A DNA stretch of 64,000 nt, taken from an uncultured bacterium. GTDB taxonomy: Bacteria; Patescibacteriota; Minisyncoccia; UBA6257; 2-01-FULL-56-20. Both the position numbers and the translations under genes were made by a program. The stretch's first letter is position 1. Every line of letters starts with the position of its first letter. The stretch lies in contig CAVYIK010000003.1 in assembly GCA_963768625.1 (NCBI GenBank), positions 390,715 to 454,714 of the forward strand, read 5' to 3'. A model generated the notes under the pieces. The model searched no databases, was not told where the DNA came from, and worked only from the letters and a program-made list of their open reading frames with translations. This document shows positions 82-62,704 of this stretch, piece after piece.

Positions 82-1199
82 CTATCGCACGCTCCGGTAG
101 CCTCCCCTCGCTCCCTCTTTCGAAAGTACTACTTGCCAGAGCTGGTTCTGCCTCGCACGGAAGGATCCCGCGCAGGAAAGAAGATAGAATTTCCACATGC
201 GATAGAACGTTTCGCCATATTTTGCGCTGATTTCCGGCCAACGCCGGTCGAAGTTCGCGAACCACGCCATAAGCGTTTCATCGTAGTCCGTGCCGAAATT
301 GTGCCAGTCCTCCATCACGAACAATTTCTCCGCACTTTTACTTATCAACGCGACCGACGGGAGTATGCTGTTCGGAAAAATATATTTCTCGATCCATGGA
401 TCGTTATGGCGCCCCGAAACATTGCTTCCGATGGTGTGCAAGAGAAAAAGGCCGCCATCTTTCAAGCGGTCATAGACAACGCGCATATAGGTCCGATAAT
501 TTTTATGTCCCACATGCTCGAACATGCCGAGGGACACAACGTGGTCGAATGTGCCCGGACGTCTCGGTAATCCTCCAAGCGGAGCTCTACGGGCAATCCC
601 TTGCAGAGTTCCCTCCCGAGCTTCACTTGCTCTTCCGAGACCGTGACACCGACGACGCTCACGCCGTACCGTTCCACCGCAAACTTTGCGAAGCTCCCCC
701 ATCCGCATCCGATATCAAGAATTTTTTGCCCCTTTCGGAGATCGAGCTTCCGGCACACGAGATCCAGCTTCGCCTCCTGCGCCGCATCGAGATCCTTGGC
801 ATCGTGCCAATAGCCGCAGGTATAGGTCATCCGGCGGTCGAGCATTCGCACAAAAAGATCGTTCCCAATGTCATAATGTTTTTGGCCTATTTCAAAAGCT
901 TTCGTCCTCCTCCCGGGATTGCTTAACACCGTTTCCAGAAAAAGCAGCGCGTTCCCCGGGGTAAGTCGGATCTTTCGATCTATCTTACTGGACAACAACC
1001 GCGCTACGAGCTCGTCAAGCGCGTCCGCTTCCCACCAACCCGCCATATAGGCCTCCCCGAAAGCCAAGGTGCCTCCGCGAAGAACGGTTTTATAGAACCG
1101 CTCATCCCGTATTTGGATATCCGACGGACGGACGCCGTTCACGCGCACATCGGCTCCCGCAAACAATTTTTCTATTGCCACCTTGGCGCGGTTCATCAC
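82..1199 (-). pseudogene. cfa: cyclopropane-fatty-acyl-phospholipid synthase, reading frame broken once near 558
   Basis: ORF 462-1199 carries the N-terminal part (DIGCGWGSFAKFAVERYG SAM motif, LRLEDYRDV). ORF 82-708 continues in another frame (FDHVVSLGMFEHVGHKNY...FYRMWKFYLLSCAGSFRAR). The junction GACGTCCGGGCAC would be in frame with one extra C or G. Confidence 0.85.
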
Positions 1200-1221
1200 C
1201 TCATTATAACCCGTGAGGATT

Positions 1222-1503
1222 TTATCCGAGCGCTTCTTCTATTGCCGCCTTGAACTTTCTTGCTTTTACGCTATCGCCGGAACATTCAACGACGTAGGTT
1301 GTCTCTCTGAGCTCGCTGTGCATTGACGAGCCCGGTCCGAAAATAGCCGGGAAGATCTGCTCTTCGATGATCCTCCTCTTCTCGTCCGAACCGGCGAAAC
1401 GGAGGGGAATATGGAAAAGCATCTTACCGCCCCCGCTTGACTGCTGTGTTTCTATCATGATGGGCTCTTGCTCGCCCTGGTCTCTGGGCAACTCTTCGGG
1501 CAT
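1222..1503 (-). CDS. hypothetical small protein (93 aa)
   Basis: Open frame packed between the PAP2-like gene stop (1513) and the cfa start (1199) on the same strand. No recognisable motif. Confidence 0.35.
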   Translation of the reverse strand: MPEELPRDQGEQEPIMIETQQSSGGGKMLFHIPLRFAGSDEKRRIIEEQIFPAIFGPGSSMHSELRETTYVVECSGDSVKARKFKAAIEEALG

Positions 1504-1512
1504 ACCTTCAGA

Positions 1513-2589
1513 CTAACCCGTTTGGCTCCCCGTTGCGAGGAAGGACAGTTCGCTTCCCGCGAGCCAGATGGCGAGCGCGGCGACAGCAAGGCCGGCGGGA
1601 ATGTCCATAAAATAATGTTGCGCAAGAAGCACGGTGCCGAAGGTCGATGCGGAAAGGAACGGCAGCGCGACCCAGCCGAGCCACCGCTTCGCGCGGAAAA
1701 GATAATACCCTGCGAGCGCGGCCCAAAAGACATGTGCGGAAGGGATGGTCGAGGTCGGCAGCGATGGCAAACTGGCCTTGCCGACCCTCACTGACTGCAG
1801 AAAATCCGCGAGCTCCGGCTGCGGATGGTAGTTCTGGACCGCAAGCGCAAGCTGGGGCGGGTCCGGCAGATGATAGATGTTATTGATATATCTGTCCTGC
1901 GGCGAAAGCGCGGGGACGGCGAGCCATAACGGCACCATAAAAAGCATACCGACGGAGAACGCGACCAGGAGCTCCCGGAATCTCTCGAGCGCGATATAGG
2001 AGAGAATGATCCCTGCTGTGATGAGGATAAGATCCATGTTCACAAATGAAAAAATGATGAAGGTAATTAGCCAGTGGGGATAATGCACTGCGCCAAGCGC
2101 CGCGAACGCGTAGTTGCCGAAAAGCCATTGCTCTCCGCCGATGATCATTTGGTCCTGTAGCCGCGCCGGGGCAAAGATGTTCGCCTCCCCCATTATCAGC
2201 GCCACGGCAAGGACGAGCATTACCGCGAATATGATCCATACGGCTTCGCGCGACCGCTTTGCCGAAGCGATGAGGGTATCGCGAAGGTCGCCGCCTTTCG
2301 CGCCGCGCAAACGCGGGAAAATGATCCCAAGGAATTCTTTCCCGAAGCTCCACATGACGAGCATGATGACGGCCACGCACAAAAAGGTGACGGTTACCGA
2401 GAAAAAGCCCGAGAAGGATCCGCTGAACGTATGGCTATAATATGCGATCCATGCCGATGCGGAACTCCCGTCCGCGAACCCGCCTGCCGCCCCAAGCACA
2501 AAGAGCAAGAAAAGCGCGGTCATAATACTCGCCGCGAGGACGGCGCCCGCCGTGCCCCGCCGTTTCAGCCAATGCCCAATCTTTTCCAT
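1513..2589 (-). CDS. polytopic membrane protein, PAP2-superfamily-like phosphatase/phosphotransferase
   Basis: 358-aa ORF with many hydrophobic helices. The C-terminal region has PSAHV and LLAQHYFMDIPAG, resembling the PAP2 C2 (PSGH) and C3 (H-x3-D) motifs. Confidence 0.5.
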   Translation of the reverse strand: MEKIGHWLKRRGTAGAVLAASIMTALFLLFVLGAAGGFADGSSASAWIAYYSHTFSGSFSGFFSVTVTFLCVAVIMLVMWSFGKEFLGIIFPRLRGAKGGDLRDTLIASAKRSREAVWIIFAVMLVLAVALIMGEANIFAPARLQDQMIIGGEQWLFGNYAFAALGAVHYPHWLITFIIFSFVNMDLILITAGIILSYIALERFRELLVAFSVGMLFMVPLWLAVPALSPQDRYINNIYHLPDPPQLALAVQNYHPQPELADFLQSVRVGKASLPSLPTSTIPSAHVFWAALAGYYLFRAKRWLGWVALPFLSASTFGTVLLAQHYFMDIPAGLAVAALAIWLAGSELSFLATGSQTG

Positions 2590-2631
2590 TGTGAAAAGTA
2601 TATCAGGCCTGAACCCAAAAATCCTTTACTG

Positions 2632-2703
2632 GGTGCCTCACGGGAATCGAACCCGTATTGCTGCTGCCACAGAGCAGAGCTTTACCATTAAGCTAGAGGC
2701 ACC
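2632..2703 (-). tRNA. tRNA-His (anticodon GTG)
   Basis: The reverse complement folds as a cloverleaf: G-1, acceptor GTGCCTC/GAGGCAC, D arm GCTT-AATGGTA-AAGC, anticodon stem CTGCT/AGCAG with loop CTGTGGC, T arm ACGGG-TTCGATT-CCCGT, discriminator C. Confidence 0.85.
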
Positions 2704-2763
2704 ATCATCTTCCGACTCTTCAGTTGAAGATTATGCCACAACGGAATGCTATAATCAACAGGC

Positions 2764-3468
2764 GTGAGCACTCTCGTGGCTAATATCGGACTCCTCGCAA
2801 GCCAAAATCTTCTCTTGGCTTATTTTATTATCTACGTCGCAACGATCTTCCTCGGCAATATTTCCGCGTTCGTGAGCTTCTGGATCGTATTTCAGGGATA
2901 TTTCGGCGTGTGGGGCATCCCGCTTCTCATCCTCACGATCTTTCTCGCCGATATGACGGGCGACCTCCTTTGGTATTCGCTTGGCCGCGCGACGCGCGAG
3001 ACGCGCTTTGGGAATTGGATCAGGCGGCGCCTGCCCGCATGGCACGAGAAAGTGGAAAATGCGTTTGAGCACAACGGGAGGCGATGGATCTTCCTTTCAA
3101 AATTCGTGTATGCATCGGCGTTCCCCGTCATTTTTTCGGCGGGATGGAGCAGGATGAAGTTCCAGCAATTCTTCCGCAATTCCCTGTTCTCCGTGCTCCT
3201 CTGGCTCCCCGTCCTCCTCGGTCTTGCGTACGGCCTCATCTCCGGCCTCTCGCCTCTCGGCGCCGTCTATGCCTTCCGCGACCTCGGGCTCACGTTCTTC
3301 ATCGGCCTCGCCCTGTTCCTGCTCCTTGATTACTTCATCGCCAAGTTCATCGCGAAGGCGCTCGGCAAGGAACAAAAAGGATTGACCGCGAGCGCTGTCT
3401 TTCTTATACTAGATCGGTACATATGTCAAATCTCACAAAAAATATCCTCTGGGCGATCCGCGCGCTGA
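2764..3468 (+). CDS. DedA/VTT-domain family membrane protein
   Basis: 234-aa ORF (GTG start) with multiple TM helices and a DedA-like core (DMTGDLLWYSLGR...RWIFLSKFVYASAFPVIFSAGWSRMKF). Confidence 0.55.
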   Translation: MSTLVANIGLLASQNLLLAYFIIYVATIFLGNISAFVSFWIVFQGYFGVWGIPLLILTIFLADMTGDLLWYSLGRATRETRFGNWIRRRLPAWHEKVENAFEHNGRRWIFLSKFVYASAFPVIFSAGWSRMKFQQFFRNSLFSVLLWLPVLLGLAYGLISGLSPLGAVYAFRDLGLTFFIGLALFLLLDYFIAKFIAKALGKEQKGLTASAVFLILDRYICQISQKISSGRSAR

Positions 3469-5311
3469 TTGTGATCTCGCTCTTCTTTTCTCGCCTTTCT
3501 CGCGCCCGCGACGCAGCCGCAGACCTTAAGCCTGAACCAGCTTGTGGACAAAATAAACGCCGGGCAGGTGACGAAGATCGTCGTGAACGGCAACGATCTC
3601 GCGGTTACGCTCAAGGATGGGAGCACCGCGGCTTCCAAAAAGGAACGAGATCTGGCATTTCGGAGACGCTCAAAAATCTTGGCGTGAATCCGACAGCGCT
3701 CCAGAGCGTTGACCTTGAAGTGCAGGACCAGTCGGGCTGGCAGTTCTGGGCGGGATCTTCTGCTCCCTACGCTCCTTCCGCTCCTCGCGATCGGCGTCAT
3801 TTTCTGGTTCATGTTCCGGCAGGCGCGCACGGGCGTGAACCAGGCGTTCAATTTCGGCCGCTCCAACCTCCGCCTTTCCACTTTCAAGGACAAGGTGATG
3901 TTCAAGGACGTCGCGGGCCTCAAAGAAGCAAAGGAGGAACTGATCGAGGTCGTCGATTTCTTAAAAAATCCTAAAAAGTTCCTTGACTTGGGCGCGCGCA
4001 TCCCCCGCGGCATATTGCTCATGGGGCCTCCGGGAACCGGGAAAACGCTCGTCGCCCGCGCCGTCGCGGGCGAAAGCGGCGTCCCGTTCTTCTATATCTC
4101 CGCGTCGGAATTCGTGGAGATGTTCGTGGGCGTGGGCGCTTCGCGCACCCGCGACGCCTTCATGACGGCGAAGCGTGCCGCGCCCGCCATCCTTTTTATT
4201 GATGAGATCGACGCGGTCGGCCGCCAGCGCGGCGCAGGTCTGGGCGGCGGGAACGACGAACGGGAGCAAACACTGAACCAGATCCTCGTTGAAATGGACG
4301 GCTTTGACCGCGACACGCGCGTGATCGTGCTTGCGGCGACGAACCGCCCGGACATCCTGGACCCGGCGCTCCTCCGGCCCGGACGCTTTGACCGCCGCGT
4401 TATCCTTGACCTTCCCGACCTGAACGACCGCGAGGCGATCCTCAAGATCCACGCCGAAGGAAAAGTGCTCGAAAAGAACATTGATCTCCGCAAGGTCGCC
4501 ATCCGCACGCCCGGCTTCTCCGGCGCCGACCTTGCGAACCTTGATGAACGAAGCCGCCATCTATCGCCGCGCGGCGTCAGCAAAAAAGCGGTCGGGCAGG
4601 ACGACCTTTTTGAAGCGGCGGAGAAGGTGATCCTCGGGCCCGAGCGGAAGAGCCGCGTGATCTCACAGAAGGAGAAGGAGATCACGGCGTACCACGAAGG
4701 CGGGCACGCGCTTGTCGCGGCAGCGGTCAAGGACGCCGACCCGGTACAAAAAGTTTCCATCATCAGCCGCGGCTTCGCGGGCGGCTACACGATGAAACTC
4801 CCGACGGAGGACCAGCACCTAAAGACGCGCAAGCAGTTCCTCGCCGACCTCGCGATGATGATGGGCGGCTACGCTTCGGAGAAGCTCACGTTCGGCGATG
4901 TTTCAACGGGCGCCTCAAACGACCTTAAAGAGGCCTCCGAGCTTGCGCGGCGGCTCGTCACGAAATACGGCATGAGCGACCTCGGCCCGATCACCTTCGG
5001 CAAAAGCGAGGAGCTTATCTTCCTCGGCCGCGAGATCACGACCGAAAAGGATTATTCCGAAAAGGTGGCGGCGGAAATCGACGCGCAGGTGCACAATTTC
5101 CTTTCGCACGCCTACGACATCGCGGAAAAAATATTGAAGTCGCAGAAGCCGGCCCTCAAAAAGATCGCCGAGACCCTGATACAAAAGGAGACGCTGGAGC
5201 AGGAGGAGTTTTACGATCTTTTGAAGCCGTTCAAGATAAAGCCGATGCCGCGTAGCGCGCGGTGCCGCCGTGCAGCGGCCCGGCCGCGCCGGCGCAGGCC
5301 GCCTGCCCTAA
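3423..5311 (+). pseudogene. ftsH: ATP-dependent zinc metalloprotease FtsH, several frame changes
   Basis: Motifs present: N-terminal TM (MSNLTKNILWAIRALIVISLFF), Walker A GPPGTGKT, Walker [40 protein letters not shown] zinc site. The frame switches in the 3480-3720 region. A compensating indel pair garbles ADLANL-MNEAAI near 4540-4570. The annotated ORF reads through to 5565 only because the true stop frame is lost near 5250-5311. Confidence 0.85.
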
Positions 5312-5837
5312 AATTCCACTGTAAATTTCGCTTTTTGCCCTTTCTGGAACGGGTGTTTTATTTCCCTCATCTCCGTCGCGAGATCGGCCACGTCAATGAA
5401 TTCCTGCGGCGCTCCGCGGCCGCTCAAGATCAAAATCCTGTTCTCCGGGAAATCTTTTATCGCCGCAAGAACCTCCGCCACGGTCAAGAAGGCCAAGCGA
5501 AACCGCCACATTCACTTCATCAAGCGCAATCAGGTGCCAGACGCCGGACTCTTTTTCTCGGATGAACACGTCAAGCGCCTTTCGCGCTGCTTCTTTATGT
5601 TTTTCGATCGGCAATTGGTCGCCCAGAATCCCCACGAACCCCAATCCCATCTTCCGTATCTCGAATTTTTCCTTCGGAATCCCGAACTGTTTCGCAAATT
5701 CATCTTCGCCGGAGATCCACGGCCCTTTGATGAACTGGATCATGAGCGCCGATCTTCCCGCGTCCCAAAACGCGGGCCATCTGCCCAAGAGATGCCGTCG
5801 TTTTCCCTTTCCCGTTGCCCGTAAATACAATGATCAT
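5308..5837 (-). pseudogene. cob(I)yrinic acid a,c-diamide (corrinoid) adenosyltransferase CobO/BtuR family, frameshifted
   Basis: The N-terminus MIIVFTGNGKGKTTASLGQ (P-loop) sits at 5837 downward. It continues in another frame with LMIQFIKGPWISGE...WHLIALDEVN, and a third frame gives ILILSGRGAPQEFIDVADLATEMREIKHPF. Confidence 0.7.
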
Positions 5838-5912
5838 TGGTGCGCACGCCTGGATTCGAACCAGGAACCGGACGTGTATAAGACGTCTGCTCTGCCGTTG
5901 AGCTACGTGCGC
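5838..5912 (-). tRNA. tRNA-Ile (anticodon TAT), CCA encoded
   Basis: Reverse complement is GCGCACG-TA-GCTC-AACGGCA-GAGC-A-GACGT-CTTATAC-ACGTC-CGGTT-CCTGG-TTCGAAT-CCAGG-CGTGCGC-A-CCA. This is a perfect cloverleaf and the anticodon loop CTTATAC gives UAU. Confidence 0.85.
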
Positions 5913-5941
5913 ATTTTGGCGCCGCCGGCCGCTACTTTCCT

Positions 5942-6552
5942 ACTATAGCATCAAACCGGTCCATCGCCTGCCCGGCCTGGCGTTGAAATTATTGATCGCG
6001 TTCACGTCAATATTGATCTGGTTCACGAGCGCCGTGACCCGGCGTTCGTACTGCTTGAATCGCTCGCGCCCGAAAACCGTGCCCGCAGAACATCAGCAAG
6101 CTCCCAAGGTCGCCGCTGTAATTGATGAGTTGGTTGATGAGTGCGAGCCGGTTCGCGATGGACTCAAGCGCCGCTTGCTGGGCGTTGAAGTCGGAGATGT
6201 CCGAAGAGGGCCTTCGTCATCCCTTCTATCTGCGCCTGAAAGCTGGACCGCTTGATCGCGGATATCCTGGCTCTGCGTGACAAGCCCCGTCGTGAGCGTG
6301 AGCGCGTTCGCGTAATCCTGCTTTTTATCGAGCGTATCCATCTGCTCAAGCGTGGCCGTGGACTGGTTTGAGAGGTTCACGATGTTCTGCGCGATGATAG
6401 CGCCCTGCATCCGTGAATCGACGAAGCTTCTGCGGCACGCTGTTCCCGCTCTGCATCACGCCGGACGACGACGTAGCCCCACGATCACGATGCCTACGAA
6501 AGCCAAAATGATCTTTGTCCGCCGGGAGAAATGGCCAACATTTGATTATCAT
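5942..6552 (-). pseudogene. hypothetical membrane-anchored protein, apparently frameshifted several times
   Basis: Overlapping minus-strand ORF pieces at 6346-6552, 6093-6410 and 6164-6349, plus an untracked frame down to a TAG at 5942. An N-terminal hydrophobic stretch (KIILAFVGIVIVG) appears only in a shifted frame. No known domain recognised. Confidence 0.3.
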
Positions 6553-6657
6553 ACATTTTATCAGAAATATTTGAAAAGCGCAAGGAGAAGTGCTATTTTA
6601 GTAATACGTTTCTCGGGCGCGAAGAGTTGCGGATGCATCCGCACGCGCCGCCGTCCC

Positions 6658-6729
6658 GCGGGTATCGTATAATGGCATTACCTCAGCTTTCCAAGCTGAT
6701 GACAGGGGTTCGATTCTCCTTACCCGCTC
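6658..6729 (+). tRNA. tRNA-Gly (anticodon TCC)
   Basis: GCGGGTA acceptor paired with TACCCGC, anticodon stem TCAGC/GCTGA with loop TTTCCAA, T arm AGGGG-TTCGATT-CTCCT. Close to bacterial Gly-UCC tRNAs. Confidence 0.85.
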
Positions 6730-6734
6730 AGCAA

Positions 6735-6804
6735 CAGCCAGAGGCAAGTAGCTTCGAAGAGAGTTCTCAGAAGGGCTCTCTTCGAAGCTACTTGCCTCTG
6801 GCTG
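6735..6804 (+). terminator. 29-bp perfect inverted repeat (hairpin) directly after tRNA-Gly
   Basis: CAGCCAGAGGCAAGTAGCTTCGAAGAGAG (6735-6763), a 12-nt loop, then the exact reverse complement (6776-6804), followed by TTTGGTTGGTTGG. Confidence 0.5.
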
Positions 6805-6956
6805 TTTGGTTGGTTGGTGACGGGAATCTCGGTTAGTTCTCCGTGTAGGAGGGTCGCGTTCTTACGCGACAGTGCGGGACCGAGGGTTCCGCAAGCGCAG
6901 GCCGATCTTATCGGCCGAGCAGTGAGATTCTCCTGTTTCTTCGGCGGAAAAGAAAA

Positions 6957-6996
6957 GGCCCCACCAGAGAAGCGTGAGGCCTTTCTGCGTGGGGCG
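6957..6996 (-). terminator. rho-independent terminator of the 7004-7471 gene
   Basis: The minus strand reads CGCCCCACGCAGAAAGG...CTTCTCTGGTGGGG followed by CCTTTTCTTTTCC. Confidence 0.5.
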
Positions 6997-7003
6997 AGAT
7001 GAA

Positions 7004-7471
7004 CTACTGCGCCGGTACACTGCCGTCGTCGCAGTGGTGGTCGGTTGGCGCCTTACCGTCAGCGCAATGAGAAAGGGAAATGCCCAGGGCCGTCGCATCG
7101 TAAGAGCTCAGCCGTTCGAGCAAATACACCTCGTTGGCATCGGACTGGCGATGAAACGTCACAAGGACGACCTTGGTTCCTGGTGCAAATGCATGGGTAG
7201 AGAATCTCCCGCCGAATGGCTCCTTGCCTAAGACGAAACAATTGTACAAACCGTCGTCGGGGGTCGGTACGCATTTCTCAACGGTATAGACACTCTCCTG
7301 TGTAGGCTTTTCATGCTCCCAGGACACGCCGCCGCGAAGGATCGAGAACGTTTCGGCTTTCTCCGCAGCATCCGTCTTGTCCATAAGGATCCTCAAACGG
7401 ATTACGCCGATGACGGCACCGAGAGCCAGAACGCTAACGACGACCGGCAATACCATTCTTTTCGTATCCAT
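7004..7471 (-). CDS. hypothetical membrane-anchored protein (155 aa)
   Basis: ORF with an N-terminal TM helix (MVLPVVVSVLALGAVIGVI), SD-like GAGGAGAG 5 nt upstream of the ATG, and its own promoter and terminator. Confidence 0.55.
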   Translation of the reverse strand: MDTKRMVLPVVVSVLALGAVIGVIRLRILMDKTDAAEKAETFSILRGGVSWEHEKPTQESVYTVEKCVPTPDDGLYNCFVLGKEPFGGRFSTHAFAPGTKVVLVTFHRQSDANEVYLLERLSSYDATALGISLSHCADGKAPTDHHCDDGSVPAQ

Positions 7472-7546
7472 ATTCTCTCCTCAAGTTACAATGTGCAGTC
7501 TTCAGCGGCTCATGCGCTGGAAGTTACCATTCCTAGTAACAAGAAT

Positions 7547-7576
7547 ATTATACCCTATATATACCATATTTGTCAA
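7547..7576 (-). promoter_or_regulatory. sigma70-type promoter (TTGACA-18 nt-TATAAT)
   Basis: The minus strand reads TTGACA (7576-7571) and TATAAT (7552-7547), about 75 nt upstream of the 7471 start. Confidence 0.55.
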
Positions 7577-7790
7577 TACCACTAAAAACCGACGTTTCTT
7601 GAGGCTTTGCCTGTGGCGCCTCGACGGAAAAAATGACGCTTTTTTCTTCATGCTATCCTATTAGCTCGGCCCTTGCCCCTAGGGCCATCCCCCGGGCGAC
7701 GGAAGAGTCTACAGCGCCAACATCCGCAAGGGTCCCATACCCTGTTGGCCGCCAGACTTCCGTCGCCTATTTTTTATCTTTATAGGGCAA

Positions 7791-7821
7791 AAATAAAAGC
7801 AGGAGACCACTGGTCTCCTGC
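7791..7821 (-). terminator. rho-independent terminator of the 7840-8106 gene
   Basis: 10-bp perfect stem GCAGGAGACC/GGTCTCCTGC with a 3-nt loop, followed on the minus strand by TTTTATTTTT. Confidence 0.7.
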
Positions 7822-7839
7822 GCGTTCGATGCTGAAGCA

Positions 7840-8106
7840 TCACCTCATATCTTGAACGCACGCCAAAGCGGTTTGCCGAGCGGTGGCATGCTTCTCGCCG
7901 AGCGATTTCCTTGCCCATTCGTAGGCCTCTCGGTAAAGCCTCTCGCGGAGCGTGAGATCCCTCTCTTCGCCTGGACGGAGCGGGCGGACTTTCGGGCGCG
8001 CGCCTCCAGGCGTACTCCCCATGGTCGCGGTGTGTCGGCTTTCAAGCTGGATGATCCTCTTTAGCGTCAGTTTCTTCTGCTTCTGCTTCTGCTTCTTCTT
8101 CTGCAT
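7840..8106 (-). CDS. hypothetical small basic protein (88 aa)
   Basis: ORF with a lysine/glutamine-rich N-terminus (MQKKKQKQKQKK) encoded by a TTCTGC hexamer repeat. It is flanked by a promoter-like element and a strong terminator. Confidence 0.4.
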   Translation of the reverse strand: MQKKKQKQKQKKLTLKRIIQLESRHTATMGSTPGGARPKVRPLRPGEERDLTLRERLYREAYEWARKSLGEKHATARQTALACVQDMR

Positions 8107-8126
8107 AACGGAAAACCTCTGGCTTA

Positions 8127-8155
8127 TTTATAGGGCAGACGCTGTGATTCTGCAA
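8127..8155 (-). promoter_or_regulatory. sigma70-like promoter (TTGCAG-17 nt-TATAAA)
   Basis: Minus-strand TTGCAG (8155-8150) and TATAAA (8132-8127), upstream of the 8106 start. Confidence 0.4.
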
Positions 8156-8158
8156 GAT

Positions 8159-8196
8159 AAAAAACGACCGGCATCTCCACGAGGGAAAGGCCGGTC
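8159..8196 (-). terminator. rho-independent terminator downstream of tyrS
   Basis: Stem GACCGGC/GCCGGTC (8166-8172 and 8190-8196), followed on the minus strand by GTTTTTTAT. Confidence 0.55.
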
Positions 8197-8345
8197 AAAA
8201 ATCGCGCCCAAGAGAACAATCGTTCGGATAACCGAACTAGTAACAGCTCGTAAGCTGTTTAGAAAAGCGATTCACTTTTGGTGGGCTGATTTAACTATAG
8301 CCCCGCCTCCGGGCCGGTCAAGACATATTGTGGACAACCGGTGGA

Positions 8346-9551
8346 TTACTTTATTTTAATGCGATAAAACCGCTTCTTTCCGATCCTTACCACTTCCCCG
8401 CCCTTCAGTTTTAGCTTCTCCTGTGGATCCTTGATAGCTTTCCCGCCCACCTCAAATCCTCCTTGCTCAACAAGCCGCCATGCTTCGCTTTTACTTTTCA
8501 CCGCACCGGATGCGAGAACAATGGCTGCGCAATCAATAGAGGGTTGGCTGTCCGCTACGGAAATGGTCAGGGGCGGCAGCTCTGCGGGAATCTCTCTTTT
8601 GGAAAAGAGCTTTTCAAATTGCTCCTGCGCCGCGCTCGCTTTTTCCGCGTCGTGGTAGCGTTTCACGATCTCAAACGCAAGCTTTTCCTTTAATTGCTTC
8701 GGGTTTGTCCCTTTTTTGAGCTCCTTCTTTATATTCTCTATCTCCGCGAGGGAAAGCCCCGTTGCCGCCTCAAAATATTCAATAATAAGCTCGTCGCGCA
8801 GCGACATTATCTTCCCGAACTGCTCATCTGGCGCATCAATGATATTGATCACGTTCCCCCAGCTCGTGGACATCTTTCGGCCATCCGATCCCACGATCAT
8901 TTTCGTTACCATGATGTCCTGGGGTTTTTGGCCATACCGCGCCTGCACCTTCCTGCCTGCCAAAACATTGAACAATTGGTCGGTGCCGCCCAGTTCTACG
9001 TCGGCTTTCACCATCACGGAGTCGTATCCCTGCATGAGCGGGTACATTCCCTCACGGTAGCTTATTTCCTCGTGCTTCTTGAACCGCTCCGAGAAATTCT
9101 TCCGCTCCAGGATCTGCTGGAAGCTGAAAAGGTCGGCGAGATCGGAAATTTCCCGAAGATCGAGCTTGGCGAGCCACTCGCTATTATAGCGGACCTCGGT
9201 CTTTTTGAGGTCAATGATCTTCCCGATCTGTGGAAGATAATTTTTGAGATTTTTTTCTACTTGTTCCTTTGATAAAAATGGTCGCTTCTCCAATTTGTCG
9301 GATGGGTCGCCGATCTGCGCGGTGAAGTCGCCGATGATGAGAACGATCTTGTGGCCAAGGTCCTGGAACTCGCGGAGCTTCCAGAGCGCCACCGCGCGGC
9401 CGATGTGGATCTTGTCTCCGGTCGGATCAATACCCAGCTTCACGCGCAACTTTTTCCCGGACGCGAGCGCGGCGCGAAGATGGTCCTTCTCGATTGCCTC
9501 TTCAACGTTCCGTGAAAGCAACTGCTCTATTTTCTCGTTTTCCGTTTCCAT
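8346..9551 (-). CDS. tyrS: tyrosine--tRNA ligase
   Basis: Intact 401-aa ORF with HIGH-type motif (KIHIGRAVALWK), KMSKS-type motif (RKMSTSWGN) and a C-terminal S4-like domain (SKSEAWRLVEQGGFEVGGK). Confidence 0.9.
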   Translation of the reverse strand: METENEKIEQLLSRNVEEAIEKDHLRAALASGKKLRVKLGIDPTGDKIHIGRAVALWKLREFQDLGHKIVLIIGDFTAQIGDPSDKLEKRPFLSKEQVEKNLKNYLPQIGKIIDLKKTEVRYNSEWLAKLDLREISDLADLFSFQQILERKNFSERFKKHEEISYREGMYPLMQGYDSVMVKADVELGGTDQLFNVLAGRKVQARYGQKPQDIMVTKMIVGSDGRKMSTSWGNVINIIDAPDEQFGKIMSLRDELIIEYFEAATGLSLAEIENIKKELKKGTNPKQLKEKLAFEIVKRYHDAEKASAAQEQFEKLFSKREIPAELPPLTISVADSQPSIDCAAIVLASGAVKSKSEAWRLVEQGGFEVGGKAIKDPQEKLKLKGGEVVRIGKKRFYRIKIK

Positions 9552-9639
9552 TAAAGAAACTTTACCACGAAAAACAAAATCCCGCCTGTCGCGGAATTTT
9601 ATTCGCGTTGTTCGCGTCGCTTGCGGCGGTCGCTTCTGC

Positions 9640-10242
9640 CTACTTCCCCGGAATTATCTCATCGATCACTCCGTAGGCCTTCGCCTCTTCGGCAGAGAGC
9701 CAGAAATCGCGATCGGTGTCCTTCTCGATCTTCGCGAGCGATTGGCCGGTGTGCTTCGCAATAATTGGTTCAGCCGCTGCTTGGTCTTCACGATCTGCTT
9801 CGCCGCGATCTCAATCTCAATTGCCTGCCCTTCCGCGCCGCCCATCACCTGGTGAAGCAGAATCTGCGAGTTCGGCAAGGCGAACCGCTTTCCCTTTTTC
9901 GCCGGCTGCAAGCAGGAACGCGCCCATGGATGCCGCGATGCCGACGCACATCGTGGAAACGTCTGGCTTCACGTATTGCATCGTGTCGTAGATCGCCATG
10001 CCGGCCGTGACGGACCCGCCCGGGCTGTTGATATAGAGCTGGATGTCTTTTTTCTGGTCCTCGTGGTCCAGGAACAACAGCTGCGCAATCACCGTGTTCG
10101 CGACGGCGTCGTTGATCGCCCCGCCGAGAAAGATGATGCGTTCCTTAAGAAGGCGCGAGTAGATGTCGTACGCCCGTTCGCCGGACTGCGATTTTTCGAT
10201 GACCGTCGGGATAAGATATTGGTTCTCTGTTTCCATAGTCAT
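9640..10242 (-). pseudogene. clpP: ATP-dependent Clp protease proteolytic subunit, at least 2 frame changes
   Basis: [32 protein letters not shown]...[48 protein letters not shown], then a second frame ([41 protein letters not shown]) and a third ([41 protein letters not shown], stop at 9640). The first shift lies in the run GGGAAAG. Confidence 0.85.
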
Positions 10243-10247
10243 TGATT

Positions 10248-12252
10248 TTATCTTATAAGAATGGTACAAGAGCAAAGCGCGATAATGTTGATGATCTTGA
10301 TGACCGGGTTGATCGCGGGGCCCGCGGTGTCTTTATAGGGATCGCCCACCGTGTCGCCCGTGACTGCCGCTTTGTGCGCCTCCGAACCTTTGCCGCCGAG
10401 ATTTCCTTCTTCAATATATTTCTTCGCGTTGTCCCACGCCGCGCCGCCGGAGGTCATGGAGATCGCGACGAAGATGCCCGTCACGATGGAGCCGACGAGC
10501 AATCCGCCGAGCGCCATCGGCCCGAGCGCGAATGCGACGATGATCGGGACGAGTACCGGCAGAAGCGCAGGCACGATCATTTCCTTGATCGCCGCCGAGG
10601 TCACGATGTCAACGCACTTCGCATAATCCGGTTTCGCCGTCCCCGCCATAATGCCGGGAATCTCCCTGAACTGTCGGCGCACTTCAATCACGACGCTGCC
10701 TGCCGCCTTGCCCACCGCGCGCATGGAAATGGACGCGAAGAGGTACGGGATCATGCCGCCGAGAAGAAGGCCGACGATGATCTTTGGATCGCTCAGATCA
10801 AATCTGATGGCACCGCCGCCGATGCTTGTTCTGCAAAGCTTGCACATATGACGAGAAGAGCACGACTGCCGCGAGCCCCGCGGAACCGATCGCATAACCC
10901 TTCGTGATTGCCTTCGTTGTGTTCCCGACCGCGTCAAGCGCATCGGTCACTTCGCGCACCTCATCCGGCAGGCCCGCCATCTCGGCAATGCCGCCGGCGT
11001 TGTCCGTGATCGGACCGAACGCGTCAATCGCAACGACGATGCCCGCCATGGAAAGCATGCTCATTGTCGCAAGCGCGATGCCATAGAGGCCGGACACCGC
11101 ATATGCCGTGAGAATGCCCGCGACGATCACGATGACCGGAAGCGCTGTCGATTCCATCCCGACCGAAAGCCCCGTAATGATGTTCGTGCCATGGCCCGTC
11201 GTTGAGGATTCCGCGATGGAGCGCACTGGGCGGAATTTCTTCGCAGTGTAGTATTCCGTGATAACAACGATAAGGCCTGTCACCAGCGATGCCGATGAGC
11301 ATCGGGTAGAAGAGCTGGCCGAAACCGCAACTGCCGAATTCGCGTAACTGCTTGCGAGGAACCAGAAGCCGATGAGCGACAAGAATGCTTGATGCAATCA
11401 AGTCCTTTATAGAGCGCGCCCATGATCGACTGGTTCTTGCCGAGCCGCACGAAGAACACTGCCGAGGATGGAAGCGATGATGGAAATGCCGCCGATCATG
11501 AGTGGCAGGACGAGCATACGTTCTGCGACCCGGGAACGCCAGGTTCCCGAGGATCATCGCTGCGATCGCCGTCACTGCATACGTTTCAAAGAGGTCCGCC
11601 GCCATGCCGGCGCAATCGCCAACGTTGTCGCCCACATTGTCCGCGATGACCGCCGGGTTCCTCGGATCGTCTTCCGGGATCCCCGCTTCCACTTTGCCCA
11701 CGAGGTCCGCGCCGACATCCGCGCCTTTCGTGAAGATGCCGCCGCCCAACCGCGCGAAGACGGAGATCAAGCTTCCCCCGAAGCCGAGCCCGATGAGCGC
11801 GCTTACGTTATGCGTCGCAGCATAGAAACCAGAGACCGCGAGCAGCGCAAGGCCAACCACGAGAAGTCCCGTCACCGAGCCGCCTTCAAACGCGATGCCG
11901 AGCGCTTTCGCGAGTCCCGACTTCGCCGCCTCCGCCGTCTTCACATTCGCGCGCACCGAGACGTTCATGCCGATATAGCCCGCGAGCGCGGAAGCGAACG
12001 CGCCGATCACAAATCCCGCCATCGTGGTCAAGCCGAGGAATACTCCGATCAGAATGGCGACGACGACCGCGACAACCGCAACCGTTTTGTATTGCCGGTT
12101 CAAATATGCTTTCGCGCCGATCTGGATCGCGTGCGCGATCTCCTGCATTTTCTTATCGCCCGCCGGTGCTTTTGAGATCTTCCAGATCAGCACCGCCCGC
12201 GAACGCGATTGCAGCCACGCTGCACGCTAACGAGAATACTATTGGCGACATA
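10248..12252 (-). pseudogene. hppA: membrane-bound proton-translocating pyrophosphatase, at least 4 frame changes
   Basis: Pieces 11024-12193, 10798-11397 and 10248-10943 carry the H+-PPase signatures [75 protein letters not shown] and [27 protein letters not shown]. The N-terminus [20 protein letters not shown] at 12252 is in yet another frame. Confidence 0.9.
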
Positions 12253-12288
12253 TTTTTATTTTATAAAATTTACTTCGTTTGCCGATCG

Positions 12289-13570
12289 TTATGTGATGAT
12301 ATCCTCTTTTTCGTCATCCTCCTCCGGCGCCGCGATCTGGTCCGATTCAATGGCGCCCGCGATGCCGCCTTCCTGCGCTTCCTCCGGCCGCGTCTGCGAA
12401 CGGACGTCTATCTTCCAGCCGGTAAGCTTCGCGGCGAGCCGCACGTTCTGTCCGCCCTTGCCGATCGCCAAGCTCAATTGGCTCTCCGGCACGTACGCGC
12501 GCGCTTCGCGACGCGGAAGGACCTCTACCTTCTCCGCCTTCGCTGGCGAAAGCGCGTTCGCGATGAATTTCTCCGGCTCCTCGGACCACTCGGCGATATC
12601 TATCTTTTCGTTGCCCAGCTCGTTGTTCACCGCCATCACGCGCGTGCCCGCGCTGGCCGACGAGCGCGCCCACCGGATCGATGCCTTCCGACTTTGATGC
12701 CACCGCCACTTTCGTGCGGTTCCCCGGCTCGCGCGCGATCGCCTTGATCTCGATCGATCCTTCCGCGAGCTCCGGCACTTCCATGCGGAAAAGTTCCGTC
12801 ACGAATTTCGGATGTGAGCGCGAAAGGATGATCCCGGCAGCCGCGTGTCTTCCTGCACGGCGAGTACGAGGAACCGCAGCCGTTCGCCGGCGCGATAGTG
12901 CTCGCCCGGGATGGATTCGTTCGCGAACATCACGCCAATCGTCCGCCCGAGATCAATGAAGACATTCCCCCGCTCAAACCGCTGTACCGACGCCGCTTAC
13001 GATCTGGCCTTCTTTGCCGCGCCACTCGCCTAAAATAGAATCGCGCTCCGATTCGCGCAGTTTTTGCAGAATCACCTGTTTCGCCGTCTGCGCAGCGATC
13101 CTCCCGAAATCGTCATGCGTTTCAAGCGGGAACGTGACCTCGTCGCCGACCTGTAGCTCCCTTCTTTGCTTTCTTCGCCTCTTCAAGCGTGATGTGCCGC
13201 TCGGGATTGAACCGCGGGAGTTTCTGCTCCTCTGCTGCTGCAGGCCGCTGCTCTCGCGCTGGCTGCACCCCTCCTCTTTTCTTATCTCTCTCTTCCGCTT
13301 TTTCTTCCTTCTCTCTTTCTTCCGCTTCTTCCTCTCGGCGTCACAAAACGCACCGTCGTTTCATCAACTACGGTCTTCACCTGCCAGAACTTCAATTCGC
13401 CCGTCGATTGGTCAAGTTCACACTTCACCACTTCGCCACGCTGGCCATATTCTTTCTTATACGCTGCAGCGATGGACGACTCGAATGACCTCAAGCACCT
13501 TCTCCGGCTCAAGACCCTTCTCATCGGCAACCTGCTTCAGCGCTTTTGTTAATTCCTTTATATTGATCAT
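12289..13570 (-). pseudogene. nusA: transcription termination/antitermination factor NusA, at least 5 frame changes
   Basis: N-terminal MINIKELTKALKQVADEKGLEPEKVLEVI, the S1 region (QVGDEVTFPLETHDDFGRIAAQTAKQVILQKLRESERDSI) and KH regions (IDPVGALVGQRG..., AIGKGGQNVRLAAKLTGWKIDVRSQ) are spread over several frames. Confidence 0.85.
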
Positions 13571-13576
13571 TCCTTT

Positions 13577-13600
13577 AAAAAAGTCCGCTCACAAGCGGAC
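13577..13600 (-). terminator. rho-independent terminator after yraN, just upstream of nusA
   Basis: Stem GTCCGC/GCGGAC with a 6-nt loop, followed on the minus strand by TTTTTT. Confidence 0.55.
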
Positions 13601-13648
13601 CACGAATACCCCAACTATATTCCCCTTCCCTGATTCCGTCAAGCCGGC

Positions 13649-14035: not shown

Positions 14036-14041
14036 GGGTAT

Positions 14042-14366: not shown

Positions 14367-14387
14367 ATTTTGTTAGAATACAACTCT

Positions 14388-47121: not shown

Positions 47122-47153
47122 CCCTATGGGCGGATTGGAACTATAATTAGTGC

Positions 47154-51362: not shown

Positions 51363-51799
51363 TTATTTCGTAAGCGGCTTTATAATAACGTACCGCTCCT
51401 TCCCTTCGCCGATGGATTCCGTCGTCACTTCGGGATGAACCGCGAGTGCGACGTGCACTAAGCGCCGTTCGTAAGAATTCATCGCCGGGAGCGAAACTTC
51501 TCCTTTCGTCGCCATCGCCTTTTTTGCTGCCGCACGCGCAAGCTCGGCGATAAGGTTCTCCCGTTCCTGCCGGTAATTGTTCACGTCAAGAAAAATAAGT
51601 TCTGTCGCCGTTCTTTTTCGCGACCATCTGGAAAATATGGTTGATGCTCTCCACGATGCTCGGGAGGTTCTCTTTTAAAGAAATTTCCGCCGTCGTAGAT
51701 AAAGAGCGAGCCCCGCTTTTCCTCGGGCTTGATCTCTATGTGGTAATCGCGGAACCCCATGCCGTCCACGATCTTTTTGGTTAGTTCCTCCCAGTTCAT
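51363..51799 (-). pseudogene. jag: Jag/SpoIIIJ-associated KH-R3H RNA-binding protein, one frame change near 51585
   Basis: R3H motif NSYERRLVHVALA in ORF 51363-51584. The N-terminal KH-like part is in ORF 51581-51799. It lies downstream of yidC. Confidence 0.7.
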
Positions 51800-59706: not shown

Positions 59707-59767
59707 TTCGTTAAGATTATAGCACCACGCTTGAGAGAATGGCCCTTTCGCGCTACAATCAAGGGAA

Positions 59768-61452
59768 ATGGCGGACCCCCAGGCAAAGGACCTTCAGTCA
59801 AAACTTACGAAGCTTCGGCGCGAGGGCGAAGAACGCGCGGCAGAGCGGCTCGCGGAAAAACTGGGCTTGACCTACGTAGACCTCTCAAAAATCCCCGTTT
59901 CGCTTGAGGCGGTGAGGGTTATCCCCGAGGATAAGGCCCGCGACGCGAAGGTCGCGGCGATAGCGCTGCGGGTGCGGAAAATCGCGGTCGCCGCGGCAAA
60001 CCCGGAGCTCCCGGCGGTCAAGGCGCTTGTCCGCGATTTGGAGGCGCAAAGATATGAAGTAAAAACATTCGTTGTTTCCCCGTCCGGGCTTGAGGCGGCA
60101 TGGCGCTTCTATAAGTTCATAAAGCCGACGACGGCGGAGATCACCGGGAAGGTTTCGATTGCACGCGAGAGGATCGACGAATTGAAGGCGCGCCTCATGA
60201 GCCTCGACGCGATTAAAAAAGAATTCGCCGGCTTGGACTTTGCGAAGGTGTCGCCCGTTACCATGATCGAGATAATGCTCGCCGGTGCTTTCGCGATGCG
60301 CGCGTCGGACATCCATACCGAAGCCGGAGAAAAAAAAGCGAAGATCCGTTTCCGCGTGGACGGGCTGCTGCACGACGTGTTCGATGACATGCCGCTCCAC
60401 GCGTACGAGGCGCTCGTTTCGCGCATCAAACTTGCTATCGGAGATGAAGTTGAACGTTCGCGACGAGGCGCAGGACGGACGGTTCACGATCGCGGCTTGC
60501 GGGGAAGGAGATCGAGATGCGCGTCTCGGTGATCCCGGCGGAGTTCGGCGAGACGATCGTGATGAGGATCTTGGACCCGTCGGCGACGCTCGTGGGGCTT
60601 CCCGACCTTGGCCTCCGCGACGGACAATCTGGCGATCGTGAAAAAGCAGCTCGAGAGGCCGAACGGGCTTATTTTGAACACCGGCCCCACCGGCTCCGGG
60701 AAGACGACGACGCTCTACGCGTTCCTGCGCACGATCAACAGACCCGGAGATAAAGATCATCACGCTGGAAGACCCGATCGAATACCGCATTGAGGGAATT
60801 GAACAGACGCAGGTGGACGACGAGGCGGGGTATACGTTCGCGAACGGACTGCGGGCCATCGTGCGGCAGGACCCCGACGTGATCCTTGTGGGCGAGGTGC
60901 GCGATCTTGAGACCGCGGACATCGCTCTGCAGGCGGCCCTGACCGGCCACCTCGTGCTTTCCACGCTCCACACGAACGACGCCGTGGGCGCCGTGCCGCG
61001 GCTCATCAATCTGGGCGTGAAGGCGGTAAGCATCGGCCCGGCGCTTTCGCTCGCGATCGCGCAGCGTCTCGTGCGCGTGCTCTGTCCGGACTGTAAAAAG
61101 CCGGCGGCCGTGAGGCGAAGAGCAGAAAGCCAAAATAAAAAAGTTCCTCGACCGGTTGCCGGCCAAGGTGGACAAGACGAAATACCAAACATACACGCAT
61201 CTATGAACCGGTGGGCTGTACAAAGTGCAACGAGCATCGGGTATAAAGGTCGGAGTAGGGATCTTTGAATTTTTGGAAGGCGGGCCCGACCTTGAAAAGA
61301 CGATTCTGAAAGAAGCGTCCGAGGTCGCGCTCCGCGAAGTGGCGGAGCGGCAGGAGATGGTCACGATGCAGGAGGATGGCATCCTGAAAGTTCTGGACGG
61401 GAAGACGACATTCGACGAAGTCGAGAGCGTGACCGGAGAGATCGAATGGTAG
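59768..61452 (+). pseudogene. GspE/PilB-type secretion (type IV pilus assembly) ATPase, at least 5 frame changes
   Basis: N-terminal GspE_N-like domain, [45 protein letters not shown], Walker [59 protein letters not shown], and CPDCKKP. Confidence 0.85.
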
Positions 61453-61687
61453 CAAACCGTTGGAGGTAGTTGGCTCAAACCTGGGGGCAAATTCCTCGTG
61501 AAAGGATTAAAACCCTTCTATCTAAAGATAAAAGGGACTAGAATTACTCAAAGGAGAGAACCAGCCGGAACCGGTTCATCCTGAAATTTTAGAAATAATT
61601 CCCGCCCCCAGATTTGAATCAGCTACTTCAAGGATATGTTAGCATATAAATTTATCTTGTCAAGGGGGTCTTGGGCACGCCATTTTC

Positions 61688-62704
61688 ATGCCATATTTCA
61701 TGAAAAAAACCACAAAGAATCCCCATATAACAAAGAAGACCAGAATATCGACCTCACGCTCCGGCCCGACGAGCTGGGACGAATATGTCGGACAGGAGAA
61801 GATCAAGGAGAATTTGAAGGTGATACTCGAGGCGGCGAAGAAACGGGGAGAGTCAGCCGACCATCTTTTATTCTCCGGTCCCGCGGGGCTCGGGAAGACG
61901 ACGCTCGCGTATCTTGTCGCGCGCGAGCTCGGCGGCATGATCAAGACCACTTCCGGTCCGGCGCTCGAGAAGACGGGCGACCTCGCCGCGATCCTTACGA
62001 ACCTCTCGCCCGGCGAAATTCTTTTTATTGACGAGGCGCATCGCGTGAATCCGATGATCGAGGAGGTTTTGTATCCCGCGATGGAGTCGCGGAAGCTGCA
62101 TCTCGTGGTCGGCAAGGGGCCGTCCGCGCGGACGCTCTCGCTCGACCTCCCGCCGTTCACCCTGATCGCCGCCACCACGCGCGAAAATCTCCTCTCGCAA
62201 CCGCTGCGCTCGCGGTTCGGGGCGACGCTCGCCTCGGCTACTACACGTGGAGGACATTAAAAAAATATTAAACCGTTCGGCGAAGATATTGGACATTAGG
62301 CAACGCCGGAGGCGATCGAGATTCTTGCGCGCGCCTCGCGCGGTACGCCCCGCGTCGCGAACCGGCTCCTCCGGCGCGCGCGCGACTTCGCCGAAGTGCA
62401 CGGGGAGAAGACGATAGACGATGTAGCGGCCCGGAAGACGCTTGAAATGCTCGAAATTGATGAGGCGGGGCTTGAGCCGCAAGATCGGCGGCTCCTCCTG
62501 ACGATCATCGAGAAGTTCAACGGCGGCCCGGTGGGGATCAATACGCTTGCCGCCGCGCTTTCCGAAGATAAAGGCGTGATCGAGGATATCTACGAGCCGT
62601 TCCTCATGACGCTTGGATTTCTCCAGCGCTCTTCCGCGGGCCGCATCGTGCTCCCGGCGGCATATAAACACTTAAAGATCCACGGCAAGGGCGAGCTGCT
62701 CTAA
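61688..62704 (+). pseudogene. ruvB: Holliday junction branch migration helicase RuvB, at least 2 frame changes near 62230-62320
   Basis: [14 protein letters not shown], Walker [12 protein letters not shown], Walker [10 protein letters not shown], and [20 protein letters not shown]. After the shifts come RGTPRVANRLLRRARDFAEV and the C-terminal wHTH (GLEPQDRRLLLTIIEKFNGGPVGINTLA). Confidence 0.85.

Follow-up and report, generated by a model that had tools for sequence, protein, structure and literature searches.

The roughly 100 frameshifts that break conserved genes in the 64,000-nucleotide stretch of DNA analysed here (hereafter the window) are an artefact of assembly or polishing, not biological pseudogenes. 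The metagenomic contig to which the window belongs is 588,419 bp long and comes from a bacterium of the Paceibacterota (Minisyncoccia), within the candidate phyla radiation. This contig is probably a mosaic in quality, whose dirty blocks blend the reads of related populations, and in the organism itself dnaA, dnaN, ftsH, nusA and the rest of the genes concerned are almost certainly intact.

Frameshifts are grouped in blocks

Shifts were counted using a frameshift-aware protein-to-DNA dynamic programme, the references being unbroken orthologues at loci L006, L010 and L001 of relatives. Plain tblastn spanned the shifts via low-identity extensions and could not be used for the counts, which rest on my own frameshift-aware aligner. 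The window divides into the following dirty (D) and clean (C) blocks, given with their genes and shifts:

82–586, minus strand: D1, dirty; 3' half of cfa (1 shift), with a one-base deletion in the G run at 554–560
587–3420 (end at about 3,400): C1, clean; 5' half of cfa, PAP2 gene, tRNA-His, VTT-domain gene
3423–6527: D2, dirty; ftsH, cobO, tRNA-Ile(UAU), gene for a 197-aa hypothetical protein
3423–5247, plus strand: ftsH (D2), 6 shifts; intact in relatives, 609 aa
5311–5837, minus strand: cobO (D2), 2 shifts
5838–5912: tRNA-Ile(UAU) (D2)
5935–6527, minus strand: gene for the 197-aa hypothetical protein (D2), 8 shifts
6530–9659: C2, clean; tRNA-Gly, small ORFs, tyrS
8346–9551, minus strand: tyrS (C2), 0 shifts
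9660–13570, minus strand: D3, dirty; clpP, hppA, nusA
9643–10242, minus strand: clpP (D3), 2 shifts
10256–12251, minus strand: hppA (D3), 9 shifts
12295–13570, minus strand: nusA (D3), 6 shifts (protein alignment) or 13 indels (DNA alignment)
13571–35077: C3, clean; UPF0102 gene, low-GC integrated element, comM, M23 peptidase gene
about 14.1–32.8 kb: low-GC integrated element (C3), with a serine recombinase at 14876–16450
35078–36886, plus strand: D4, dirty; uvrD minus its last 145 nt, at least 10 shifts (at least 3 N-terminal, 7 C-terminal), with an A12 run at 35534–35545
36887–45940: C4, clean; 3' end of uvrD, ksgA, six lineage-specific genes without Pfam matches
45949–50172, plus strand: D5, dirty; genes for a Pro-rich protein (at least 2 shifts), prgI-like (1), traC-like (6) and virB4-like (3) products
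51372–51760, minus strand: D6, dirty; jag (R3H domain), 2 shifts relative to the intact 132-aa L010 gene
51881–53131, minus strand: C6, clean; yidC and rnpA, Pfam matches full length, 0 shifts relative to L010
53216–62701: D7, dirty; dnaA (8 shifts), dnaN (4), PBP1A gene (11), 56-aa ORF (2), ruvC (2), yebC (2), pilB-like gene (8), ruvB (5)

The frameshift-aware protein alignment that the original prediction had called for found 94 shifts in 19 genes (6,545 codons). Outside these 94 are the shift in cfa, those in the N-terminal part of uvrD and those in the gene for the Pro-rich protein, and overall at least 100 frame changes affect at least 22 conserved genes. By contrast, no shift was found in eight control genes (VTT, tyrS, ksgA, yidC, rnpA, two hypotheticals and a T4SS pilin; 1,907 codons), some of which have a mere 40–58% identity to relatives. 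All 18 genes that had been named as needing frame changes do need them, and the estimate of more than 50 shifts made at that time was too modest. Pfam profile matches tell the same story: the domains of broken genes are divided among different frames, as for the CMAS profile in D1, broken at position 126 across two frames, the UvrD domains in D4, distributed among three, and the domains in D7, where one ORF is a YebC-RuvC fusion.

Indels are mostly insertions outside homopolymers

At the DNA level, 35 insertions were counted against 4 deletions, most of them single additional bases; at the protein-guided level, the figures are 78 and 16. The indel rate in the dirty blocks is about 1.4%. No motif common to the indel sites was found, their sequence contexts being heterogeneous. 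The original prediction placed the shifts in short homopolymers, and both of its examples hold: GTCCGGG in cfa (554–560) is short of a G, and adding one restores the ...FDHVVSLGMFEHVG motif, and GGGAAAG in clpP has one A in excess. The generalisation fails, however: of the 29 single-base indels whose exact position could be fixed, 20 lie in no run at all and 2 in runs of at least three. Clean and dirty blocks have similar homopolymer densities, which therefore do not account for the block pattern, and an A8 run inside the integrated element is the same in an independent contig. The insertion bias outside homopolymers matches no platform or tool signature that the analysis could assign.

GC content was considered as a cause of the blocks and rejected, the clean host block at 37–45.9 kb having a GC content equal to that of the dirty blocks. 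The GC content of C3 is 44–47%.

Independent contigs match the clean blocks and diverge abruptly in the dirty ones

An independent assembly of run ERR11594402 provides four contigs that cross block edges: L092, L002, L093 and L001. (A literature search on the run accession gave no match.) Across the clean blocks covered, some 26.9 kb in total, these contigs differ from the window by a total of 2 mismatches and 1 indel, while over 2.7 kb of dirty blocks they display 5.4% substitutions and 39 indels. The switch from near-identity to divergence is abrupt at the block edges. L092 ends at position 587, 27–33 nt from the shift site in cfa, and has 1 mismatch and no gap relative to the window over 587–2666 in C1, whose VTT gene has no shift relative to L006. 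L002 and the window agree fully over 8073–9659 (C2) but differ over 9660–10471 (D3) by 43 mismatches and 5 indel events. L093 differs over 12447–13570 by 55 mismatches and 13 indels, the difference beginning exactly at the nusA start codon, and is 100% identical over 13571–29403 (15.8 kb of C3); in the remainder of C3, ORFs are long and intact, with complete Pfam domains. Finally, 48 mismatches and 21 indel events separate L001 from the window over 36106–36886 (D4); the two are identical over 36887–43661 and 43666–44261 (C4).

The alternation of broken and clean blocks that had been described earlier is therefore borne out quantitatively (indels at 39 of 2,717 nt in dirty blocks versus 1 of about 26,870 nt in clean ones; Fisher p = 1e-39). 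The list of clean blocks given at that time had overlooked the one from 587 to about 3,400, and block edges are refined to 9,659/9,660, 13,570/13,571 and 36,886/36,887.

Where the window is broken, clpP (in L002), nusA (in L093) and uvrD (in L001) are intact and in frame. Since the contigs that carry them match the window in the adjoining clean blocks, they support the earlier view that no real pseudogenisation has occurred. The substitutions in the dirty blocks comprise 110 synonymous and 36 non-synonymous changes (75% synonymous), and codon position 3 takes 110 of the 146 (chi-square p = 2e-26), which indicates that the source sequences are functional and under purifying selection. Purifying selection in the substitutions is incompatible with old pseudogenes or random base-call error.

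The affected genes are called as single unbroken ORFs in L001, L002, L093, L003–L011 and L094/L095, the relatives having been assembled by others; the exception is yebC, which looks short (179 aa) in L010. Thus, the D5 genes are intact in L010 and, yebC apart, each D7 gene is called as one ORF in L010 and L011. No lesion common to close relatives or strains was found among the loci compared. Conservation is higher among dirty genes, whose median amino-acid identity to relatives is about 85%, than among clean genes, where it is about 58% (Mann-Whitney p = 5.5e-4). Conservation separates the two classes imperfectly, since VTT (78% amino-acid identity) and yidC (80%) are clean and the prgI-like (64%) and traC-like (70%) genes are dirty.

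The dirty blocks carry a mixed allelic signal

Where the window and the intact version have different bases, the outgroup shares that of the window in 68 cases and that of the intact version in 30 (p = 1.6e-4). Likewise, the ClpP and NusA residues of the window are shifted to the family consensus, and few residues are private to the window. In nusA, nucleotide identity of the window is 94.3% to the intact version and 88.3% to the sister lineage of the latter. Divergence from the intact version is evenly spread along the gene, without long stretches of exact match. A four-taxon test was applied to this gene, with A the intact version, W the window, C the sister lineage and O the outgroup. Pattern (A,W)|(C,O) was found at 40 sites, (A,C)|(W,O) at 22 and (A,O)|(W,C) at 7, the asymmetry between 22 and 7 having a p value of 0.008 for this single 1.1-kb gene and single outgroup species. 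At the 22 sites, the window has the outgroup allele where the intact version and the sister lineage have a derived base in common. Sites of the first and second patterns follow each other in random order along the gene (runs test z = -0.95). Interleaving site by site is what a per-site consensus of mixed populations would produce, as opposed to a natural lineage or recombination tracts; the sequence of nusA thus points to a per-site blend of populations.

A scan of metagenome contigs with ClpP returned distant ClpPs alone, at most 78% identical, and hence no candidate for the contaminating lineage. A scan of genome contigs with a 754-aa lineage-specific protein returned no relative, and exact-protein look-ups with five clean ORFs gave no match, probably because start codons had been called differently. 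A search with the frame-corrected NusA returned no intact protein with the allele set of the window, the best match (92%) being a member of the clade of the intact version.

Origin of the dirty blocks

The explanation that I consider probable is the following. Unique blocks, which contain the integrated element, genes specific to the lineage and weakly conserved housekeeping genes, would be base-perfect. In conserved-gene blocks, reads of related co-occurring populations would have been recruited beside those of the organism itself during consensus building and/or polishing. The output would be a per-site majority blend, made mainly of the organism's own alleles, with about 5% of sites replaced by alleles of the wider family, and additionally loaded with about 1.4% spurious indels, chiefly single extra bases. 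Correction by accurate reads would later have succeeded in the unique blocks only. I infer both the read recruitment and the software step responsible. The frameshifts are then artefacts, the real genes being intact, as the ERR11594402 contigs show. Uneven polishing, consensus collapse and chimeric assembly had been put forward earlier as possible causes. The site-by-site blend of alleles favours the second, as does the high conservation of the dirty genes among relatives; as for the first, a plain lack of polishing would not give 5% mainly synonymous differences.

An alternative that I regard as unlikely is gap filling in a hybrid assembly: the clean blocks would be short-read contigs, and the dirty blocks gaps, left where conserved genes had entangled the short-read graph and filled with a low-depth, uncorrected long-read consensus. 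This would explain the sharp block transitions, the correspondence of clean blocks with ERR11594402 contigs, the proximity of the L092 terminus to the cfa shift and the conserved nature of the genes affected, and a low-depth long-read consensus could plausibly have about 1.4% indels. However, bridging long reads from the same organism predict the intact version plus random errors, whereas a 5.4% difference that is 75% synonymous was observed, together with a blended phylogenetic signal. Gap filling from the organism's own reads alone would not yield 5% mainly synonymous differences; long reads from other populations are needed too, at which point this alternative merges into read blending.

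It is more doubtful still that the long reads came from a distinct strain, about 95% identical in core genes, whose unique blocks were over-polished to the dominant short-read strain while its conserved blocks missed polishing (for example through ambiguous mapping to another contig) and kept true alleles plus raw indel errors. The substitutions would then be genuine evolutionary differences, and the even divergence of nusA, without long stretches equal to the intact version, is in keeping with this. Yet about 26.9 kb would have to be converted perfectly to 100% identity. Moreover, a natural sister should have the derived alleles common to the intact version and its distant sister lineage, whereas the window lacks 22 of them, at interleaved positions, and its private residues are few.

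That the frameshifts are real, through gene decay or through recoding (programmed frameshifting, transcriptional slippage or editing) in a reduced symbiont genome, is close to refuted: candidate-phyla-radiation bacteria do have reduced genomes and unusual biology, and broken gene calls are deposited in public databases (P0001, P0121), but at least 100 shifts strike dnaA, dnaN, ftsH, nusA, ruvB and others, they are of both signs, without common motif and up to 11 per gene, they end exactly where blocks identical to independent contigs begin, the substitutions show purifying selection where decay would relax it, and intact versions exist in same-sample contigs and in relatives (the yebC of L010 being short). 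Insertions predominate, whereas pseudogenes of bacteria have a deletional bias. Pseudogene-rich genomes in reductive evolution are those of Mycobacterium leprae and of recently host-restricted symbionts; the window resembles them in its many recognisable frameshifted genes, but here the damage extends to essential genes of replication and transcription, there are more insertions than deletions, most substitutions are synonymous and same-sample contigs contain intact copies. Programmed frameshifting and transcriptional slippage, as in prfB and dnaX, also change frame within a functional gene, but they do so at a single conserved site in each gene, whose slippery motif is kept in homologues; genes of the window have as many as 11 sites, without a motif, and no site is common to any relative. 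Were the window accurate after all, which is hardly credible, it would describe a Paceibacterota with about 100 insertion-biased frameshifts in core genes, hence an unfamiliar form of recoding or a collapsing lineage, whose core genes would be a fine-scale mosaic of two lineages and whose accessory DNA would be identical to that of a co-occurring strain.

Comparison with known assembly artefacts

Read blending of the kind proposed here has two close parallels. Gaps in the short-read polishing of long-read metagenome-assembled genomes leave patchy frameshifts (PMC8863827), and the idea of an IDEEL-type interrupted-ORF diagnostic was used in PMC9426551. As in such artefacts, conserved genes of the window are fragmented relative to full-length homologues, in patches, and the damage is gone where accurate reads made the correction. 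The window differs in that most indels are single-base insertions outside homopolymers, nanopore data being described with homopolymer-length errors, and in that the uncorrected blocks hold foreign alleles besides indels.

The second parallel is the strain- or species-collapsed consensus in metagenome assembly, a problem tackled by strain-separation tools such as Strainberry (PMC8302730). In both cases, one contig stands for several populations in common regions, with alleles of lineages interleaved. A collapse would also be confined to sequence common with relatives, and the dirty genes are, with exceptions, the more conserved ones. The usual form is a mosaic of SNPs; here, by contrast, the collapse seems to involve more distant relatives and the most conserved genes only, and comes with a heavy indel load.

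Consequences for the use of the contig

The biology is ordinary, and the practical value of these results is a warning about pseudogene calls. The caveat that the original prediction attached to every such call holds for the dirty blocks, where the shifts are artefacts: across the 588-kb contig, calls of pseudogenes, truncated genes or missing functions in such blocks are unreliable. Protein databases already contain products of broken genes, such as a 584-aa FtsH and a 228-aa fragment of DnaN. Furthermore, the nucleotide alleles of the dirty blocks do not come from one organism, and core-gene phylogenies, ANI and population-genetic measures would be biased to the family consensus.

Clean blocks, including the integrated element, are trustworthy. 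A search for terminal direct repeats of this element gave just one 11-nt match, which is at chance level. As a diagnostic, frameshift density combined with agreement with an independent k-mer assembly of the same run marks the usable parts of a contig.

Extent of the frameshifts

Frameshifts were counted with a purpose-written protein-to-DNA aligner that has frameshift states, using as references the orthologues at syntenic loci of relatives (L003-L009 from VTT to nusA, L010 and L011 from prgI to ruvB), whose genes are single ORFs as called with the exception of a short yebC (179 aa) in L010. This frameshift-aware alignment, a check proposed with the original prediction, gave 94 shifts in 19 genes (6,545 codons), with the window one base too long in 78 cases and one too short in 16, while the same aligner found none in eight control genes (1,907 codons), some of which are only 40-58% identical to their reference. 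Beyond these, one shift lies in cfa, at least three in the N-terminus of uvrD and at least two in the Pro-rich protein. The window thus holds at least 100 shifts, twice the earlier estimate of more than 50; all 18 genes named as frameshifted are so, and a 197-aa hypothetical gene, a traC-like gene and a 56-aa ORF are also affected. In Pfam searches, the CMAS profile on cfa is split at position 126 between frames, domain pieces of ftsH, uvrD, dnaA, PBP1A, the pilB-like gene and ruvB are spread over two or three frames, and YebC and RuvC are joined in one ORF. Two broken products of the window, P0001 (a 584-aa FtsH) and P0121 (a 228-aa DnaN fragment), lie on one 588,419-bp contig present in NCBI and ENA. 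Homologues of FtsH, DnaN and NusA bear the source names Minisyncoccia, Candidatus Paceibacterota or Patescibacteria, and the GC content of host sequence in the window is 52-60%.

The frameshifted blocks differ from independent contigs

Comparing the window with four contigs that exact-protein look-ups found in the Logan assembly of run ERR11594402 separated clean from frameshifted (dirty) blocks:

L092, window 587-2666: clean over its full span (1 mismatch, 0 gaps), no dirty part
L002, window 8073-10471: identical over 8073-9659; dirty over 9660-10471 (43 mismatches, 5 indel events)
L093, window 12447-29403: identical over 13571-29403 (15.8 kb, most of the integrated element); dirty over 12447-13570 (55 mismatches, 13 indels), the divergence beginning at the nusA start codon
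L001, window 36106-44261: identical over 36887-43661; dirty over 36106-36886 (48 mismatches, 21 indel events)

At every dirty stretch compared, clpP, nusA and uvrD are intact in the independent contigs. The 2,717 dirty nt compared hold 39 indels and the roughly 26,870 clean nt a single one (Fisher p = 1e-39); homopolymers are about equally dense in the two classes. The indels are mostly insertions in the window (35, against 4 deletions). The original prediction placed them in short homopolymers; its two examples, in cfa and clpP, are correct but not typical, since 20 of the 29 single-base indels lie outside any homopolymer, 7 in runs of 2 and 2 in runs of 3-4.

Of the 146 substitutions, 110 are synonymous and 36 are not, and 110 fall at codon position 3 (p = 2e-26). 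They are therefore true evolutionary differences between functional genes, and stem neither from base-calling noise nor from drift in dead genes.

The longest homopolymer in the window, an A12 run at 35534-35545 in the helicase domain of uvrD (dirty block), probably owes part of its length to spurious bases; the independent contig bears out an A8 run in the element (29113-29120). The sole place where the window copy is intact and the independent contig broken is 43662-43665, at which L001 has a G/A difference and lacks one base (CCGGC-GGG versus CCAGCAGGG), so that a 550-aa lineage-specific ORF (43388-45040) is cut into pieces of 107 aa and longer. Either a genuine difference between strains or an error in L001 may be the cause.

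Frameshifted genes tend to be the conserved ones

Median amino acid identity to the relatives fetched is about 85% for dirty genes (virB4-like 94%, ftsH 91%, ruvB 90%), whereas clean genes are at about 58% or have no homologue (Mann-Whitney p = 5.5e-4). Exceptions are VTT (78%) and yidC (80%), which are clean, and the prgI-like (64%) and traC-like (70%) genes, which are dirty. Compared with lineage C (L094, L095; protein P0241), sister to the intact version A of the independent contigs, the clean UPF0102 gene has a divergence of 15-19% and no indel, while next to it the window carries numerous single-base insertions in nusA and hppA.

Origin of the dirty alleles

Where the window and A differ, the outgroup L006 sides with the window at 68 sites and with A at 30 (p = 1.6e-4). 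In the proteins, the window has the residue that relatives commonly carry at 8 of 9 sites in ClpP and at most sites in NusA, and the derived residues of A are shared with lineage C. A four-taxon test on nusA alone (window, A, C and one outgroup) showed A to be closest to the window (94.3% nucleotide identity, versus 88.3% between A and C), so that a natural lineage in that place is expected inside the A-C clade and with its derived bases. Yet at 22 sites the base is common to A and C but the window matches the outgroup, as against 7 with the reciprocal pattern (p = 0.008); the window is grouped with A by 40 sites. Along nusA, sites of the two kinds are intermixed at random (26 runs, 29.4 expected, z = -0.95), which rules out recombination tracts. 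The data do not fit a single organism's sequence; they fit alleles called site by site as the majority in a mixture of A's own reads and those of relatives.

Explanation

The frameshifts are an assembly artefact and hold little biological interest. Their best explanation is, with fair probability, that reads of co-occurring related populations were recruited to conserved genes during consensus building, polishing or both; this would yield blended alleles and spurious indels in conserved blocks, while unique blocks would be corrected cleanly. Patchy frameshifts are known in nanopore MAGs from gaps in short-read polishing (PMC8863827), and errors of this kind are usually diagnosed from interrupted ORFs (PMC9426551). 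Simple non-polishing, or a gap filled by the organism's own long reads, predicts intact alleles with random errors and is contradicted by the substitution pattern. The insertion-biased, non-homopolymer signature points to no particular platform or tool. Genuine decay or recoding is extremely improbable: essential genes are among those broken; a single gene can have as many as 11 sites, extra and missing bases both occur, and no motif is shared; insertions outnumber deletions; substitutions bear the mark of purifying selection; the genes are unbroken in the ERR11594402 contigs and in relatives (single ORFs, the L010 yebC being short); and the shifts fall exactly in those blocks where the window departs from the independent contigs. 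The earlier doubt about real pseudogenisation was thus well founded. The block map is a guide to the trustworthy parts of the contig.

Other features

The clean and dirty blocks include the following:

14.1-32.8 kb (approximate): low-GC (44-47%) integrated element, between a UPF0102 (yraN-like) gene and comM
14876-16450, - strand: large serine recombinase of the element
26416-27779: AbiEi/AbiEii toxin-antitoxin pair of the element
5838-5912, - strand: tRNA-Ile (UAU anticodon), same position in a relative (L006 12676-12748)
47154-51345 (L010 467-6728): type IV secretion-like cluster (prgI-like, traC-like, virB4-like, T4SS pilin)

The element also encodes HTH_17 excisionase-like, sigma-70 region-2, NERD, PG_binding and trypsin-like proteins; its part within L093 (to 29403) is 100% identical to the window, and no terminal direct repeats longer than 11 nt were found. 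The tRNA-Ile has no internal indel despite its dirty-block location. Its fold is preserved relative to L006 by compensatory substitutions in the acceptor and T stems, and its 3' CCA is encoded in the window copy but not in that of L006.

The secretion cluster adjoins jag-yidC-rnpA-dnaA. Because this chromosomal synteny is conserved in L010 and few proteins here are as conserved as the VirB4-like ATPase (94% aa), the cluster seems to belong to the core gene set of these bacteria and not to a mobile element. Homologues (40-41% aa) of two L010 genes between virB4 and jag (4315-6728) lie about 8 kb away and inverted in the window (39061-41036, - strand), within a clean lineage-specific block, indicating local rearrangement or paralogy.

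L010 (ENA ERZ25039515) and L094 (ERZ25039509) come from ENA analyses whose accession numbers are adjacent and whose records are named 'contig_N', which suggests that a single project produced many related Paceibacterota assemblies; all their genes are single ORFs as called except yebC of L010 (14425-14964), which is short and overlaps ruvC. Occasional broken or variable genes also occur in relatives' assemblies made by others: VTT (L003, L004, L008 9346-9967) is two short ORFs of 94-103 and 74 aa (204 aa in L005-L007), the nitroreductase (L003, L006 about 13750-14340) is a 74-aa ORF in L003 with no gene call in L006 (194 aa in L004, L005 and L007), and the dCache gene encodes 451, 367 or 335 aa.
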